Positions 2,225 to 24,847 of a DNA stretch of 64,000 bases are shown here, one piece after another. The position numbers were made by a program, and so were the translations under genes. The notes below the pieces were generated by a model that saw only the letters and a list, made by a program, of their open reading frames with translations, did not search any database and had not been told where the DNA came from. The DNA comes from Candidatus Poribacteria bacterium (GTDB lineage: Bacteria > Poribacteria > WGA-4E > WGA-3G): positions 3,680,001 to 3,744,000 of the forward strand of contig OZ243938.1 of NCBI GenBank assembly GCA_965214095.1, in the 5' to 3' direction. Position 1 is the stretch's first letter. The number at the start of each line of letters is the position of its first letter.

Positions 2225-2356
2225 AAAAAAAACTCCTCTTGGTAATTTCTATAAATCTCAACATCCCTGTCAAACAAAGTGTCTCATATTTGATTTGTAA
2301 ATATCTTAACAGTATCTAATTTTTTCAAGAAAAACACAAGTTAAATTGTCTGTATT

Positions 2357-2704
2357 CAGGGTTATTTAGCCTTAGGTTTATCTGGTGTTTCTTTCACGGA
2401 CGCTAAATGTCCCAAAACGGTAGGTGCGGTTTCCTAACCGAACCGGCTTTGTTCCAAATACGTTCATATAGGTTCTCGCACAGGTTCCGTGCGGTTAGGA
2501 AACCGCACCTACCGGCCTGGGGAAAACGCGTAGGATCCGGTTCGGTTAGGAAACTTTCACGGACGCTAAATGCCCCAGGCCGGTAGGTTCGGTTTCCTAA
2601 CCGAACCGGCTTTATGCCAAATACGTTCATATAGGTTCTTGCACAGGTTCCGTGCGGTTAGGAAACCGCACCTACCGGCCTTAGGTGAGGTTAGGAAACC
2701 GCAC
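2357..2704. repeat. MITE end (CAGGGTTATTTAG) plus cluster of six REP-like hairpins, including a ~130-bp direct duplication (2391.. and 2554..)
   Basis: Repeated GGTAGGTGCGGTTTCCTAACCGCACC-type palindromes in alternating orientation; left end matches 9479 and 29571. Confidence 0.85.
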
Positions 2705-2717
2705 CATAGGCGTCAAT

Positions 2718-4037
2718 TTAGTGATTTTTTGCTGCATTTTCAAGGTGTTCTAATGTTGTGTCTCTATTAGCACGTCTCTCAATGTAGCACCCATTTTGGA
2801 AAGCGTGTTTTATTTCATCAAAAGTTTGCCGAAAAGACATTATAGACTTGCGGAAACCTATTGCAAGTGTGCGTGCGAAGGTGCTAATAAGTTCTGCTGT
2901 TTTTGTTAGACTATGTTTTAGACATCGCCAACCGACCCTTAACATGATCCAGTGCCGCATAATTGCGACGATGAGTTTTGCATATAACTCACATAAGATT
3001 CTATATGGCTTGTCGCTACGGGAGGTATCAACTTTTCCAATGCTTTTGAAGCACTTGAACATCAACTCAACCTGCCATCGGATGCGTGCGACAGCACAAA
3101 TCTGTTCAGCAGTCAGATGGTCTACTTTTATATTAGTAATGTAGATATTCCATCTTGCGAGCTGAAGTCGTTTGGGTGAAGGTTTCGTATACTTCCGCTT
3201 TGCACGATGTTTTATCTCCTTAATACGCTGTTGGGTTTCTGTTTCTGAAAGTCTTTGAACAACTAATCGTGCTTTGAGACGCTTGTTTTTACCTATAAAG
3301 ATTTGTTTGTCCTTGAAGTTATTAGAACCCTTCTTGAGCCATTTTAGCAAACAAAAAGGGTCACCTGTTTCATCATAGAGAAAACACTGGACTTTGTAGC
3401 GTGATATCCAAAAGACGTTTGCATCGGAAAGTCTTTTGAAGGTATCAAGTGAATAATAGCCGAGGTCTGCGAGGCGCAAACTGCCGGCGGGTAGCATGTC
3501 AATCTGCTTTTCAATAGCACTATCAGCGGTGATACCATTGGTCAGTTCAAAGTGTTCAAAAGTGCCTGTGGCACTATCAAAACGCAGGTGGAGTTTCACG
3601 GCAGCTGTGTTCGGTTTATTCTTTTTGCTTCCACCTTCCCAAGTTTCGTGGAGCACATCAGGGAGTGTAATCCAAGAACTATCTTGTAAATAGACACCAG
3701 TGAACTTTTCAAGGAGCGGAAGCGTTTGCGGGTCGGCAGAAATAACCTTGGACGCAGTAGCATCAAGGATAACTTTCAGGGTCTCTGCTGCTTCAGATGT
3801 AAATCGTTGTTCAATGGCTTGTCGTGAGATTGAAATCCCCAGCACACCAGCGGTTTGCGCAAGTTGTGTATAGGTGGCATCTGGGTTTTCTAACCAAGTC
3901 CAAATGAGTATTTGAGCAAAACGACTACCGTTGAGTTTACAACTTCTTTTGACAAAACCTGTATTGAGAGCTGCATCATTGGCTATAGTTGTAAGAATAT
4001 GTTGCATTTCTTTGGGAACTTGTGATAATGTATTCAT
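2718..4037 (-). CDS. IS4-family DDE transposase
   Basis: Motifs LQDSS, LADLGY and RWQVELMFKCFK (YREK-like, Tyr replaced by Ala); stop codon lies inside the terminal inverted repeat. Confidence 0.92.
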   Translation of the reverse strand: MNTLSQVPKEMQHILTTIANDAALNTGFVKRSCKLNGSRFAQILIWTWLENPDATYTQLAQTAGVLGISISRQAIEQRFTSEAAETLKVILDATASKVISADPQTLPLLEKFTGVYLQDSSWITLPDVLHETWEGGSKKNKPNTAAVKLHLRFDSATGTFEHFELTNGITADSAIEKQIDMLPAGSLRLADLGYYSLDTFKRLSDANVFWISRYKVQCFLYDETGDPFCLLKWLKKGSNNFKDKQIFIGKNKRLKARLVVQRLSETETQQRIKEIKHRAKRKYTKPSPKRLQLARWNIYITNIKVDHLTAEQICAVARIRWQVELMFKCFKSIGKVDTSRSDKPYRILCELYAKLIVAIMRHWIMLRVGWRCLKHSLTKTAELISTFARTLAIGFRKSIMSFRQTFDEIKHAFQNGCYIERRANRDTTLEHLENAAKNH

Positions 4038-4041
4038 TAGG

Positions 4042-4097
4042 AAACACCTCTTTGTAGACCATAATAAATCTATATCTACATTATATATGAGGTGTTT
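4042..4097 (-). promoter_or_regulatory. Hairpin occluding the transposase RBS, with an internal -10 box
   Basis: AAACACCTC (4042-4050) and GAGGTGTTT (4089-4097) form a perfect 9-bp stem, with inner TGTAGA/TCTACA pairing; minus-strand TATAAT at 4080-4085. Confidence 0.6.
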
Positions 4098-4259
4098 TCA
4101 TTTTTACAGAAGTTTTATTTCATAATTTATACTTCCTCTGATTAAAAGTTGACACTTATCGGTCTTGGTGCATCCTTAAATTGACGCCTATGGTGAGGTT
4201 AGGAAACCGCACCCTACCAGCCTGGGGATTAACATAATCCTGAAAATCCTGGTTCAGAA

Positions 4260-6959
4260 TTACTTCAAAATAATTAACCGACGCGTTTGCTGGAAAGAAG
4301 GTGTCGTCAACTGGTAGAAATAAATACCACTTGCAACTTTTTCACCTAAAGTATTTCTGCCATTCCAATACGCAGCACGTCCGTGGTTATGATAGAATCC
4401 CTCCGATTGATAGCCGAGAGTAAGCGTCCGAACAAGTCCACCTGCCGTATCATATATTGATATGGATACAGGGGACGCAACCGACAGTTGATACGGTATC
4501 CACGTCTCAGGATTGAAGGGGTTCGGGTAGTTCTGCAACAACTGGTCTTTGTTCGGTTGACCGATGCTGTCAAGGGTGACAGGAAGCAAAGCATTCGCTA
4601 AGTTGTCGGGTGTCACCTTAAAGATATATTTCTCTGATGCGACATTCCCGATTATGTCAGACACGATTACTTCCAACGTATCACCAACTTGCACAACACT
4701 CCGATATGAAAGGTCTGCCGTAGCAGCGGCAAAGTAGTTATCACTGACTTTCGCTGTCATAACGGTGTTTGTCCGCGTGTTTCGGACTGTGATATGATAA
4801 CCGTCGTATTTCTGTGTACCTTGTAATTGTCCACTGACAACGAAAGCCCAAGCCTCACGTGCTGTCGCATTTGGAGATGCAGTCGGTGCTGCACTCGTAG
4901 GCATTTCATTTGTCCAACGTGCTCCGACGAAAGCAAAATCACGAACTTCTGGGACATTGACGATATAACCCTGACCACCTTCTATTGTGAAGCCATCATC
5001 AGGTGAACTTGGTGTCCAACCGATGAAACTTTGACTTTCAGTGTCAAGTGCTATCACCATTGTTGATCCTGTTATACCCGCCAGAGATTTTGCGTTCATT
5101 CGCGTTGTCGGTGCTAATGGCACAGACAGCATGTTTAGACCTTTGGTGAGTGTGACGGTATACGTGTTACCAAAATGATCACTCTCTTCCTGAGTACTGA
5201 GTCTTGCGACAAACCCGTGTCTACGTCCATCTGCTGAGACATAGTTCCCGACGACAGAAGCATCTTGATTGATATTCCAGCCCTCCGTGCTAACACTACC
5301 CGGATACTGCAATTCATGTAGTCCGTGCTGGAATGAGCCGACATAGGTGCGCGGCATGTCACCTACTGCTTTGGCTCTGCTAACGACAACGATGCCCCTT
5401 GCGTCTACATCGGCGACACCGTGAACGAAAAAGTATTCCAGATTGGTCGGATCCAGATAGTTCAGAACTGCGTATCTGCCATCCGGTCTATACGCGTATG
5501 AATGATATAGACCTTCAACGTCTACGTAGCTGCCGACGACAAGACCGCTTGCGTACACAAAATCGGCATAAGTTGCTGCTGCTTCAGGAGCCTCAACAAC
5601 TGTATCACCTGAGAATCCGCGACGAACGCCATCAGCACCTATAAAATTACCTGTCAGTGCGCCTGTTGCATCACTGATACCGAATATTTGCGTTTCGACG
5701 GCATCCGGAAAATCGTATTGGCGCAGTTCACCGTTTTCTAAGATGACACCGTGATAGAGACCGTCACTATCTTCGTAGTGCCCCGCAGCTTGTCCATTAT
5801 TATCGAGCGCATAGAAATATGTATTCTTAGAGCCGGGGAAATCGTAGGTGGTAAAAACACCATCAATCAGCGTAAAGGCGACTATTTTCTCGCCATCAGC
5901 ACGCCGCGTGTTACCAGCGTAATCTTCAAAATCGCTACTCGCTGTCAGATCTAAATAATCTACACCCGGCACATCAATGCTCTCAAATATAAAGTTGAAG
6001 TCGGCATCTGGTGTAGCGGGTTGCGTAGCAGTATCCGTTGTGGGTTTTGCGATAAACCCGTGTCTGTTTCCATCTGCTGTATCATAGTGTCCGACGATAG
6101 AACCGTCCTGATTAATATTCCAGCCCTCTGTGATAACACTGCCCGGATACTGCACTTCATGTAGACCATACCGCAGCGACCCGACATAGGTGCGTGTGAC
6201 ATCATCCACTGCTTTTGCTCTGCCAATGACAATCGTTGCATCGTTGATTCCATGCAGAAAAATGTATTCCAGATTGGACGCATCCAGATAATCCACAGTG
6301 AAGAATCTGCCATCCGGCGCAAACAGGTATGTATGATATAGACCTTCAACGTCTATGTATGTGCCTACGATACGACCGCTTGAGTTCACAAAATCGGCAT
6401 AAGTTGCTGTTGCATCGGGGTACTCAACGATTGTCTCGCCTGAAAATCCTCGGCGAATACCAGAAGTATCAATAAAATTGCCTGTCAGCGCGCCCGTCGC
6501 ATCACTGATACCGTATATCTCCGTTTGCACGGCACCCGGAAAATCGTATTGTCGCAACTCACCATCTTCTCCTAAGACGACACCGTGGTAGAGCCCATCG
6601 CTATCTTGGTAATGCCCCGCAGCTTGTCCATTATTACCGAATGCATAAAAATGAGTTTTCTGCGAATTGGGGAAATCGTAGGTCGTAAAAACACCATCAA
6701 TCAGTGTAAAGGCGACTTCTTTTTCTCCATCAGCACTCCGTGTGTAACCCGCATAATCCTCAAAGTCACTACTCGCTGTCACCGCTAAAAAATCTACACC
6801 CGGAACATCAATGCTCTCAAAGGTAAAGCTGGAGCCAGCGGACGCAACAGCGGATTCATCGTTATCTTGTGCAGTAGTTTCCCTTATGAAAAAGGAATTG
6901 AGGCACATGAATAACGTAAATATGTAAAACAGAAAACTGGTTCTAATTTGATTGCGCAT
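4260..6959 (-). CDS. Secreted protein with two tandem HAF-like/beta-propeller modules and a T9SS type A/FlgD-like C-terminal domain
   Basis: Signal peptide; internal duplication (F.FESIDVPGVD...GWNINQD.S.VG.Y...DG.RHGF.A twice); C-terminus QNYPNPFNPETWIPYQL...ASGIYFYQL...RRLIILK. Confidence 0.8.
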   Translation of the reverse strand: MRNQIRTSFLFYIFTLFMCLNSFFIRETTAQDNDESAVASAGSSFTFESIDVPGVDFLAVTASSDFEDYAGYTRSADGEKEVAFTLIDGVFTTYDFPNSQKTHFYAFGNNGQAAGHYQDSDGLYHGVVLGEDGELRQYDFPGAVQTEIYGISDATGALTGNFIDTSGIRRGFSGETIVEYPDATATYADFVNSSGRIVGTYIDVEGLYHTYLFAPDGRFFTVDYLDASNLEYIFLHGINDATIVIGRAKAVDDVTRTYVGSLRYGLHEVQYPGSVITEGWNINQDGSIVGHYDTADGNRHGFIAKPTTDTATQPATPDADFNFIFESIDVPGVDYLDLTASSDFEDYAGNTRRADGEKIVAFTLIDGVFTTYDFPGSKNTYFYALDNNGQAAGHYEDSDGLYHGVILENGELRQYDFPDAVETQIFGISDATGALTGNFIGADGVRRGFSGDTVVEAPEAAATYADFVYASGLVVGSYVDVEGLYHSYAYRPDGRYAVLNYLDPTNLEYFFVHGVADVDARGIVVVSRAKAVGDMPRTYVGSFQHGLHELQYPGSVSTEGWNINQDASVVGNYVSADGRRHGFVARLSTQEESDHFGNTYTVTLTKGLNMLSVPLAPTTRMNAKSLAGITGSTMVIALDTESQSFIGWTPSSPDDGFTIEGGQGYIVNVPEVRDFAFVGARWTNEMPTSAAPTASPNATAREAWAFVVSGQLQGTQKYDGYHITVRNTRTNTVMTAKVSDNYFAAATADLSYRSVVQVGDTLEVIVSDIIGNVASEKYIFKVTPDNLANALLPVTLDSIGQPNKDQLLQNYPNPFNPETWIPYQLSVASPVSISIYDTAGGLVRTLTLGYQSEGFYHNHGRAAYWNGRNTLGEKVASGIYFYQLTTPSFQQTRRLIILK

Positions 6960-7000: not shown

Positions 7001-7648
7001 GTTTCCTAACTGCACCTTATGTGTCAATTTAGTGTAAATTAGGCGTTTTCCCCAGGCCGGTAGGTTCGGTTTCCTAACCGAACCGAATACAAAAATTTGA
7101 TTTATCAAACTCACGTTATAGTGAATTATAAATATAAGTTGACACTTTCGACCCGCGGTAGGCGAGGTTTCCTAACCTCGCCGATGCAGAGTGTTCAAGT
7201 AATTTCAAAATCAAAGCAAAATATAGGTATTTTGCAAAACTAACTTAACGTCTTATAATTAATCATATTAAGACATTATTATATAATAATAGTTTATACA
7301 AAACTTATAACGTCTACATATTGATATTTTTTGTTTATGGTATTGGATTGAGAGGTGGTCTTTATGTCTCGCTTTGTGTATTTGGCACAAAGCCGGTTCG
7401 GTTAGGAAACCGAACCTACCGTCGTATGTAATAATTATGGTTTTTACTATAGTGGAATGGACAATTAATAGGACACGCCTCAGAGGGCGAGGAAACCTCG
7501 CCCCTACGATTTATAGTAAAATCTGAAATTAACAATACACTTTACATTTAGAAAAACGCGTTTGTAGTCGCGCAATTGATTGCGCCTCTTACATTGTATG
7601 AATATGCAATTGGGACAATATGTTTCATTAATTGTAAGTTTTACTATA
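7001..7648. repeat. Cluster of nested or abutting MITEs and REP-like hairpins
   Basis: Degenerate IS4-type end at 7016-7031; TATAGTGAATT MITE at 7117-7212; REPs near 7060, 7158, 7395 and 7486; TATAGTAAAA...TTTTACTATA MITE at 7512-7648. Confidence 0.8.
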
Positions 7649-18097: not shown

Positions 18098-18214
18098 ATA
18101 GTCTCCTTGAAAATGGAATAGGACTCAATTATAGATTTAATTATTTACACACTACGGTAGGTTCGGTTTCCTAACCGCTTCCCCAGGACGGTAGGTTCGG
18201 TTTCCTAACCGACC

Positions 18215-18386
18215 CATAAGCGTCAATTTAGCGTCCTTCCAAGTACCGGTAGGTTCGGTTTCCTAACCGAACCGGCTTTGTGCCAAATACCTTCATAGAG
18301 GTTCTCGCATAGGATCCGGTTCGGTTAGGAAACCGAACCTACCGGCCTGGGATTATAGCGTGATTCCCCTTAAATTGACGCCTATG
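18215..18386. mobile_element. 172-bp non-autonomous MITE with the same ends as the IS4 element and a 20-bp target duplication
   Basis: CATAAGCGTCAATTTAG...CTTAAATTGACGCCTATG, flanked by GTTCGGTTTCCTAACCGACC at 18195-18214 and 18387-18406; internal inverted REP pair. Confidence 0.9.
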
Positions 18387-18534
18387 GTTCGGTTTCCTAA
18401 CCGACCCGGTGTTTGTTCTGTCTCATAGTCAGGCAGAATGCGCGTATGGCATTCTGCATTGGTTAGGAAACCGCATCTACCGGGGAGTGTGCATGTATTT
18501 TTACATTTTACTATAATAACACGAGGATGTCAAA

Positions 18535-24357: not shown

Positions 24358-24847
24358 GTCTGAACCAGGATTTTCAGGATTAGTAGATTTTCAAGATAAG
24401 ACTTCTCATCTAATACCATTTCTCATAAAGAATAGTTCATTATGAGATTGTGAATTCAGCGGAATATTGTCTGGACCAAGATTTTCAGGATTATGCGTCT
24501 GACGTTTCAAAGTGCCGTTGGTGGGATAGGCTGAAACTTGATGTTGGCAAGAATGGGACAATCGGGGTTAGAGACCCTACCTAAAGATTAGTGTAGACAG
24601 AACACTACGGTAGGTTCGGTTTCCTAACCGAACCGGCTTTGTGCCAAATACCTTCATAGAGGTTCTCGCACAGGTTCCGTGCGGTTAGGAAACCGCACCT
24701 ACCGGCCTGGGGAAAACGCCTAATTTACACTAAATTGACACCTATGGTTCGGTTTCCTAACCGAACTGGTGTTTGTTCAGTGTTATAGATGCGGTTAGGA
24801 AACCGCATCTACCGTGGAGTGTGCCCGTATTTTTACATTTCACTACA
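24358..24847. repeat. Composite repeat region: two TCTGAACCAGGATTTTCAGGATTA-type repeats, a GTAGACAGAACACTA end, REP hairpins and a single IS4-type end (24731-24746)
   Basis: Sequence matches to 4234-4258, 39134, 7016-7080 and 18250-18515. Confidence 0.75.

Follow-up and report, generated by a model that had tools for sequence, protein, structure and literature searches.

The length of the target duplication is usually taken as a fixed fingerprint of a transposase family, reflecting how far apart the enzyme's two active sites lie on the target. For IS231A, a target consensus and non-autonomous cassettes known as MIC231 are familiar background. The IS4 family is defined by a DDE triad, a YREK motif, a single reading frame, and a duplication of about one helical turn (7 to 13 bp), and its IS231 subgroup by the end signature CAT-------AA--TAA and a duplication of 10 to 12 bp; in the sections of the source drawn on here, long duplications are limited to IS1634/IS1549, where they range between 8 and 514 bp (De Palmenaer et al. 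2008, PMC2266710). In Sinorhizobium meliloti, copies of the IS4-family element ISRm22 lie in repetitive extragenic palindromic (REP) sequences at a palindromic consensus, with 6-bp repeats at its axis, according to the sections drawn on (Tobes and Pareja 2006, PMC1525189). Here, an insertion sequence (IS) of the IS4 family was analyzed in a 64,000-nucleotide stretch of DNA, hereafter the window, from a Candidatus Poribacteria bacterium (GCA_965214095.1, contig OZ243938.1, positions 3,680,001 to 3,744,000). The element is intact, 1488 bp long (window positions 2705 to 4192), and flanked by a 20-bp direct repeat that comprises a whole REP hairpin.

The insertion of IS4-family elements into REP sequences is already known. 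What appears to be new is a fixed duplication of about 20 bp, which differs from the 7 to 13 bp of the family. Within the literature covered (open-access papers and bioRxiv only), no report was found of an IS whose duplication is fixed at about 20 bp, nor any on IS elements of Poribacteria. The original prediction for this locus was that the transposase reads a hairpin or cruciform in its extruded form, cutting it at the base, with structure setting the duplication length. We favor a different reading, with a probability of roughly 0.8, in which the transposase would cut with a two-turn stagger and read two end motifs, hairpin structure being neither needed nor sufficient.

A 20-bp duplication at hairpin and non-hairpin sites

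The focal element (minus strand) is one of 13 full copies in the genome, which are 98.25 to 100% identical. Its 16-bp terminal inverted repeats match perfectly: the gene-downstream end, CATAGGCGTCAATTTA (2705 to 2720, plus strand), contains the transposase stop codon (2718 to 2720), and its reverse complement at the gene-upstream end (4177 to 4192, minus strand) lies 155 bp before the start codon at 4037. A single open frame (2718 to 4037, minus strand) encodes the 439-amino-acid (aa) transposase, in which the DDE triad is conserved and A-R-E-K replaces Y-R-E-K. The 20-bp target duplication, GTGAGGTTAGGAAACCGCAC, is identical on the left (2685 to 2704) and on the right (4193 to 4212) and consists of a single REP hairpin whose stem has an A/G mismatch. 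Since neither the window nor the 5.2-Mb genome contains this 20-mer anywhere else, it represents a duplication and not two independent REPs, which confirms the arrangement of inverted ends and duplicated hairpin that had been predicted. The hairpin had also been thought to be the commonest REP; instead, it differs by one mismatch from the GTGC..GCAC class (82 copies), and GTTC..GAAC, with 264 copies, is the most frequent class across the genome.

An exact 20-bp duplication flanks all 13 full copies. This copy number fits the short-read contig depth over window positions 2300 to 4600, where the ratio of IS to unique flank was 13.2, 16.8, and 11.9 (runs X6, X9, and X7, respectively). Ten copies reside in REP hairpins and are always bounded by the base of the 20-nt hairpin. 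The remaining three lie in unrelated, non-palindromic 20-mers without stem-loop potential, one in a WD40-repeat gene, one in a ResIII/helicase gene, and one in a 289-aa frame without a Pfam match. Thus, the element does not show the REP-specific "type 1 association" in which all copies are found in REPs, as it is given in the sections of Tobes and Pareja (2006) drawn on: 10/13 copies lie in REPs, in one register, and 3/13 elsewhere. The idea of an intergenic safe harbor holds only in part, given the two copies that interrupt the WD40 and ResIII/helicase genes. Non-hairpin copies with short duplications had been named as an observation that would speak against hairpin-guided insertion; such sites do exist (3/13), but their duplications are not short (20 bp). 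The non-palindromic sites also place the termini at CATAGG and set the duplication to 20 bp, removing the 18- to 22-bp ambiguity that the palindrome had seemed to leave. With 20 bp at hairpin and non-hairpin sites alike, a length of about 20 bp is therefore a property of the transposition reaction and not of the hairpin.

The same length was found in short, non-autonomous elements. A 172-bp miniature inverted-repeat transposable element, or MITE (18215 to 18386), has the termini of the focal element and is flanked by exact copies of a 20-bp hairpin, GTTCGGTTTCCTAACCGACC (18195 to 18214 and 18387 to 18406), whose loop orientation is opposite to that at the focal site and which occurs at these two places only, genome-wide. 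There are 39 short paired elements in the genome, mostly of 170 to 173 bp; a duplication of 20 bp was found in 20, of 19 bp in 3, and of 21 bp in 1, whereas 15 had no recognizable one, and 14 of the 24 elements with a recognizable duplication lie in non-REP sites. As partners of an autonomous IS, the short elements have its termini and duplication length and no transposase, and they would presumably be mobilized by it in trans.

The three non-REP sites were compared with orthologous loci in relatives. A single 20-mer spans the junction in 15/15 loci, and a one-copy model beats a two-copy model by 20 to 24 in each of them; 13 loci are ungapped throughout, and the other 2 have small indels at least 30 bp from the target 20-mer. 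For the commonest hairpin context, itself a repeat, 84 paralogous empty sites have one hairpin and none has two, so the concern that empty sites might already contain tandem hairpins falls away. These data bear on the explanation that the hairpin is part of the element, or that the repeats arose by recombination between tandem REPs, with no insertion duplication at all. The abundance of REPs (668 hairpins) and their frequent clustering suit this explanation, but the flanking 20-mers differ between copies and match within each copy, including rare variants present just twice in the genome. The focal repeat is direct, with loop and mismatch oriented alike on both flanks rather than inverted; abutting tandem hairpins without an intervening element occur nowhere in the genome; and the non-REP sites behave alike. 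We consider such an origin extremely improbable.

Target bases, hairpin shape, and duplication length

A genome-wide search for hairpins of the form N4-GGTT-loop-AACC-N4 gave the 668 hairpins, with four main classes that have compensatory outer stems: GTTC..GAAC and GTGC..GCAC, counted above, as well as GCGA..TCGC (108) and ATGC..GCAT (70). Among 180 element ends, 90 adjoin a hairpin in exact register, 1 is shifted by one base, and 89 lie elsewhere. The predicted targeting of REP hairpins is thus borne out, both by the full copies (10/13) and by the ends (90/91 hairpin-adjoining ends in exact register), and at REP sites the whole 20-nt hairpin is indeed duplicated. The ends adjoin GTTC..GAAC (45) and GTGC..GCAC (11) hairpins, plus variants, which amounts to 56 ends on 346 hairpins of the two used classes, against 0/108 for GCGA..TCGC and 1/70 for ATGC..GCAT (Fisher P of 1e-7, overstated since the repeats are kin). 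The unused classes match the used ones in loop, inner stem, length, and flanks. In each of two sister genomes, 64 GCGA-class hairpins carry no junction, compared with 72 junctions on GCAC in one (G039) and 6 in the other (G037). Four hairpin classes of equal shape, two of them used, provide a natural compensatory-mutation experiment that separates a sequence reading from a structure reading. Compensatory mutations had been suggested as a check of the structural idea, and the natural classes of equal shape are not equivalent.

Outside REPs, the target shows a signature at its two ends. In 64 unique non-REP flanks, C was found at position -1 in 54 and A at position -2 in 38, with C/A at -3; at the far end, G was found at -20 in 47, with G/T at -19 and -18, and the middle carried no information. 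The signature of the non-REP targets is therefore 5'-GKK...MAC-3' at the duplication ends, with nothing else in common. Palindromy as a general feature of these targets was rejected: the inner-7-pair complementarity of 52 non-REP targets was 1.65, compared with 1.76 for random genomic 20-mers (P = 0.78). Some individual non-REP targets are palindromic (L041; GTGCGGTAAAGGCACCGCAC at C1:1881012). A weight matrix trained on non-REP sites only gave likelihood ratios of 57 and 224 for the used hairpin classes and 4.5 and 3.0 for the unused ones. Since non-palindromic targets are used and isostructural classes are ignored, structure is neither necessary nor sufficient, and the outer bases of the duplication are read.

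In the proposed mechanism, the transposase would make target cuts separated by about two helical turns (20 bp, allowing for one base more or less), compared with one turn (7 to 13 bp) in the family, and gap repair would leave a 20-bp duplication at every type of site. The cut positions would be chosen by base-specific reading of two symmetry-related motifs (5'-G K K ... M A C-3') that come to lie at the duplication ends, probably with each motif read by one half of a transposase dimer. The GTTC..GAAC and GTGC..GCAC hairpins have both motifs exactly 20 nt apart at the outer stem end, and consequently the whole hairpin would be duplicated and the register would be constant. The chemistry is likely to be cut-and-paste.

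The duplication length was also followed in relatives of the transposase. Close relatives (84 to 90% aa identity, in two other Poribacteria) have 20 bp in 6/6 cases, one of them at a non-REP site. Among more remote poribacterial relatives, 55 to 57% identity goes with 19 or 20 bp, 49% with 18 bp, and 47% with 17 bp. For the relatives at 47 to 57%, the usual target is a second repeat whose hairpin has a 7- to 15-bp stem; in their folded reconstructed sites, the duplication starts at a GGT/ACC pair located 4 to 8 bp into the stem and not at its base. This second repeat has the stem GTAGGTYGGGT/ACCCRACCTAC and a 13- to 14-nt loop (L018, L009, L037, and L036) and is also found in the focal genome (G000:C1:5180447 and 2273889). 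In a single element type, the length tracks the GGT/ACC spacing, with 19 bp in 12/12 of the 19-nt variants and 20 bp in 5/6 of the 20-nt variants (P = 0.0007).

Similar tracking was seen in the sister genome G003. The sample comprised 40 end regions among those listed of 391 ends; 39 were usable, 25 of these had a callable duplication, and 23 resulting pairs lay on GTGC-type hairpins. A 3-nt loop (19-nt hairpin) went with 19 bp in 7/9 cases and a 4-nt loop (20-nt hairpin) with 20 bp in 13/14 (Fisher P of 0.001); the other two of the nine 19-nt hairpins still gave 20 bp, with one flanking base included. Taken together, all of these lengths are best explained by end motifs, which coincide with the hairpin base in the GTGC type. 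What survives of the original idea is thus the expectation that the length follows the target, which holds within one base; that structure sets the length is not supported. In G003, 1470-bp sister IS copies (L111, L114, L115, and L122) carry split halves of one duplication on different copies, some of them inverted, a pattern left by recombination or inversion between copies of the IS.

These results allow the structural explanation to be judged, according to which the transposase recognizes an extruded hairpin or cruciform and cuts its base, the stem-loop geometry setting the length. It would account for the 90/91 hairpin-adjoining ends bounded exactly by the base of the 20-nt hairpin, for the match of 19- and 20-nt hairpins with 19 and 20 bp in G003 (7/9 and 13/14), and for the use of REPs at about 100 times the end-motif prediction; it accommodates neither the 20-bp duplications outside REP hairpins (3/13 IS sites and, likewise, 14/24 MITE sites) nor the two 19-nt G003 hairpins that yielded 20 bp. 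The element does not behave as a structure-specific transposon, given that non-palindromic targets, as a group no more palindromic than random DNA, are used and isostructural GCGA..TCGC hairpins are left unused in three genomes (0/108, 0/64, and 0/64). The one-copy empty sites in relatives and the cuts of relatives inside 7- to 15-bp stems point the same way. Recognition of an extruded structure that sets the length, as originally predicted, is therefore rejected as very unlikely.

Several points nevertheless weigh against two-motif reading as a full account. REP hairpins make up 0.7% of the genome-wide matrix weight, yet they host 10/13 IS copies (P = 9e-20). A feature other than the four outer bases on either side thus gives REPs a roughly hundred-fold advantage, which may stem from additional sequence, bend or shape, extrusion, a bound host protein, or the loss of harmful insertions. 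The ends and hairpins are members of repeat families, and their counts are not independent. The tracking of 19 and 20 bp in G003 is also predicted by a rule of cutting at the hairpin base for that hairpin type. The search for an empty allele at the focal site gave none; in G005, the orthologous spacer (L068, 3750 to 4070) has neither REP nor IS. Short-read contigs from four public runs over window positions 2300 to 4600 break at repeats, and none of the listed joints, whose sides are only 20 to 34 letters long, skips exactly the element plus one repeat. Among the short elements, the 15/39 without a recognizable duplication result from nesting or recombination. In addition, the reaction is read from sequence rather than from directly observed transposition.

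The excess of REP insertions may have either of two further explanations. In the first, the transposase and end motifs set length and register, and palindromy adds the hundred-fold REP preference; transient extrusion, hairpins on the lagging strand, an intrinsic bend, or a REP-binding host protein are possible routes. IS231A is said to prefer bent targets, and the palindromic non-REP targets (L041 and GTGCGGTAAAGGCACCGCAC) are in line with such a contribution, as is the use of REPs beyond the matrix prediction. However, palindromy is not generally enriched among non-REP targets, hairpins with the wrong outer bases gain nothing from structure, and the same excess could result if the inner stem made additional sequence contacts or if harmful insertions were removed. 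We regard this combination as possible though doubtful. In the second, insertion would occur wherever weak end motifs are found, and the REP copies would be those that selection tolerates. Two of the three non-REP copies interrupt genes, and all copies are young (at least 98.25% identical), so that harmful ones are perhaps still being lost. By simple arithmetic, though, if one tenth of the genome tolerated insertion, REPs would account for some 7% of the usable weight instead of 77%, and 14/24 MITEs with a duplication persist outside REPs. Survivorship as the sole cause is thus very unlikely, slightly more so than the reading of extruded hairpins.

The element is also biased in how it is oriented with respect to the asymmetric hairpin loop (9/10 here and 4/5 in the relatives at 84 to 90%; together 13/15, binomial P of 0.007). 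Some asymmetric feature of the loop or flank seems to matter.

MITEs, REP repeats, and the spread of the long stagger

The interior of the 172-bp MITE consists of two inverted REP hairpins around a center of about 45 bp. In general, the MITE interior is an inverted doublet of GTTC/GTGC hairpins of about 110 bp; 172 such doublets are present in the genome, 31 of them with both IS-type ends. Since the interior is made of the preferred hairpins, the element family brings along the target that it prefers, and insertions are often nested: at least 24/90 hairpin junctions are located within another such element or back-to-back with one. At G000:C1:2057240-2057414, there are four tandem 58-bp units, each with a 38-bp MITE end and a 20-bp hairpin, which resemble the outcome of repeated insertion into duplicated hairpins or of unequal exchange between them. 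A second short-element type with the same termini and another interior occurs at G000:C1:2136659-2136924 (266 bp) and 3407505-3407791 (287 bp).

Distant relatives (26 to 30% identity) in metagenome-assembled genomes of Clostridia and Bacteroidota have related CATAGCC ends. Their duplication was 11 bp in 4/5 callable cases (e.g., GGGTTAGACCC) and 7 bp in one, and two further relatives had no callable duplication; in L046 and L051, the 11-bp duplication has the form GGG-5 bases-CCC. In Chloroflexota, two plasmid copies at 34 to 35% identity have duplications of 19 bp (Herpetosiphon aurantiacus pHAU01) and 20 bp (Ca. Chlorohelix allophototropha). Thus, the long stagger is a clade trait that extends beyond Poribacteria. 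We tentatively suggest, at somewhat less than even odds, that an IS231-like clade in Poribacteria and Chloroflexota moved from a one-turn to a two-turn stagger, that two separately read end motifs make its duplication length dependent on their spacing, and that the family spreads its own landing pads via MITE doublets, with nested and mostly harmless insertion following. We know of no characterized DDE transposase whose duplication length depends on motif spacing.

The window contains further traces of this family. The element-end motif has 6 matches with up to 3 mismatches, compared with 0.64 expected from shuffling. A solo end with 1 mismatch (24731 to 24746, minus strand) adjoins a hairpin at 24747 to 24766 in the same register as at the focal site, and a degenerate end with 3 mismatches (7016 to 7031, plus strand) lies beside a decayed hairpin. 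The additional junctions named in the original prediction (18214/18215, 18386/18387, 24746/24747, and the degenerate 7015/7016) are accordingly all real. Left of the insertion, a REP cluster (2424 to 2671) comprises four hairpins in two inverted doublets, with the doublet core of about 110 bp as in MITE interiors. On the other side, positions 4260 to 6959 (minus strand) encode an 899-aa, secreted-looking protein with a large internal duplication, which belongs to tandem paralogue arrays in the genome and in relatives (e.g., G000:C1:4658901-4667709).

A REP-associated tyrosine transposase (RAYT) as maker of the REPs was not evident: none of the 5 genomic Y1_Tnp matches is flanked by hairpins. 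They are 4 copies of an IS200/IS605-like element and one fragment. This element is about 1.8 kb long, encodes a 141-aa Y1 transposase, and has copies that are 98% identical (G000:C1:81623, 2170036, 2385609, and 4230081; L061 to L064). A separate contig of the genome (C2; 32,066 bases) has a G+C content of 64%, compared with 41% for the main contig, and may be a foreign replicon or a binning contaminant.

Family assignment and comparison with known systems

The predicted IS4-family membership was supported by profile searches with the 439-aa transposase, which scored 80.5 bits against Pfam PF01609 (DDE_Tnp_1; cut-off, 23) and 195.9 bits against the IS4 model NF033592 of NCBIfam (cut-off, 115); the NCBIfam IS1634 model gave only 29.2 bits (cut-off, 100). 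A sequence search of the PDB returned no match at E values up to 1. In an alignment with 11 relatives, D, D, and E are conserved. The YREK motif is incomplete, with R, E, and K kept and A at the Y position; the relatives at 84 to 90% identity also have A at this position, L011 and L035 have V, and Y is found in L007, in L026, and among the distant relatives. Of the features by which De Palmenaer et al. (2008; PMC2266710, sections drawn on) recognize the IS4 family, the single-frame DDE_Tnp_1/IS4-type transposase and the short inverted repeats beginning with 5'-CA are present, and the complete Y-(2)-R-(3)-E-(6)-K motif and the 7- to 13-bp duplication are absent. The IS231 signature CAT-------AA--TAA fits the gene-upstream end, CATAGGCGTCAATTTAA; the other end has G at position 17. 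The 10- to 12-bp duplication of the subgroup is absent, and so is its transposase kinship, with many pairs above 50% in the subgroup vs 24 to 28% identity to Bacillus plasmid copies here. The end-finder located no ends in the IS231-type copy L165 of Bacillus mycoides. The element is probably an active IS231-like member of the IS4 superfamily, accompanied by a MITE family of about 171 bp.

A branch of a well-studied family with twice the family's duplication value, flexing by one base with the spacing of the end motifs, offers a natural system for studying how a Tn5-like complex holds its target. There is also a practical aspect, as IS annotation tools that expect duplications of at most 13 bp will mis-set the ends of these elements. 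One may speculate that 20-bp direct repeats flanking the element ease the precise loss of an insertion.

The closest described elements are IS231A and its relatives in the Bacillus cereus group. Like these, the focal element has a single-open-reading-frame DDE transposase, ends that fit the subgroup signature, a symmetric target with G-rich/C-rich ends, and both autonomous and non-autonomous partners. It differs in the 20-bp duplication (10 to 12 bp in IS231), the identity of only 24 to 28% to Bacillus copies, the change of Y to A in YREK, the poribacterial host, and the REP hairpin as preferred target. ISRm22 resembles it as an IS4-family element inserted into REP sequences; whereas ISRm22, in the sections of its description drawn on, duplicates 6 bp at the palindrome axis, the focal element cuts at two outer ends and duplicates the whole 20-nt hairpin, and it also uses non-REP sites (3/13). 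Site-specific insertion into REPs is likewise a property of IS1397 and ISKpn1 (IS3 family) and of IS621, ISPpu9, ISPpu10, and ISPa11 (IS110 family). In the same sections (PMC1525189), however, these have other transposase families and chemistry and insert at one point inside the REP with 0- to 4-bp repeats, the hairpin never being duplicated. Finally, IS1634/IS1549 (IS1634 family, formerly IS4) are the only IS4-related elements reported, in the sections of PMC2266710 drawn on, with a duplication far beyond one turn; from one copy to another, their repeats range from 8 to 514 bp, whereas the length in the focal element is fixed at 20 bp, plus or minus one.

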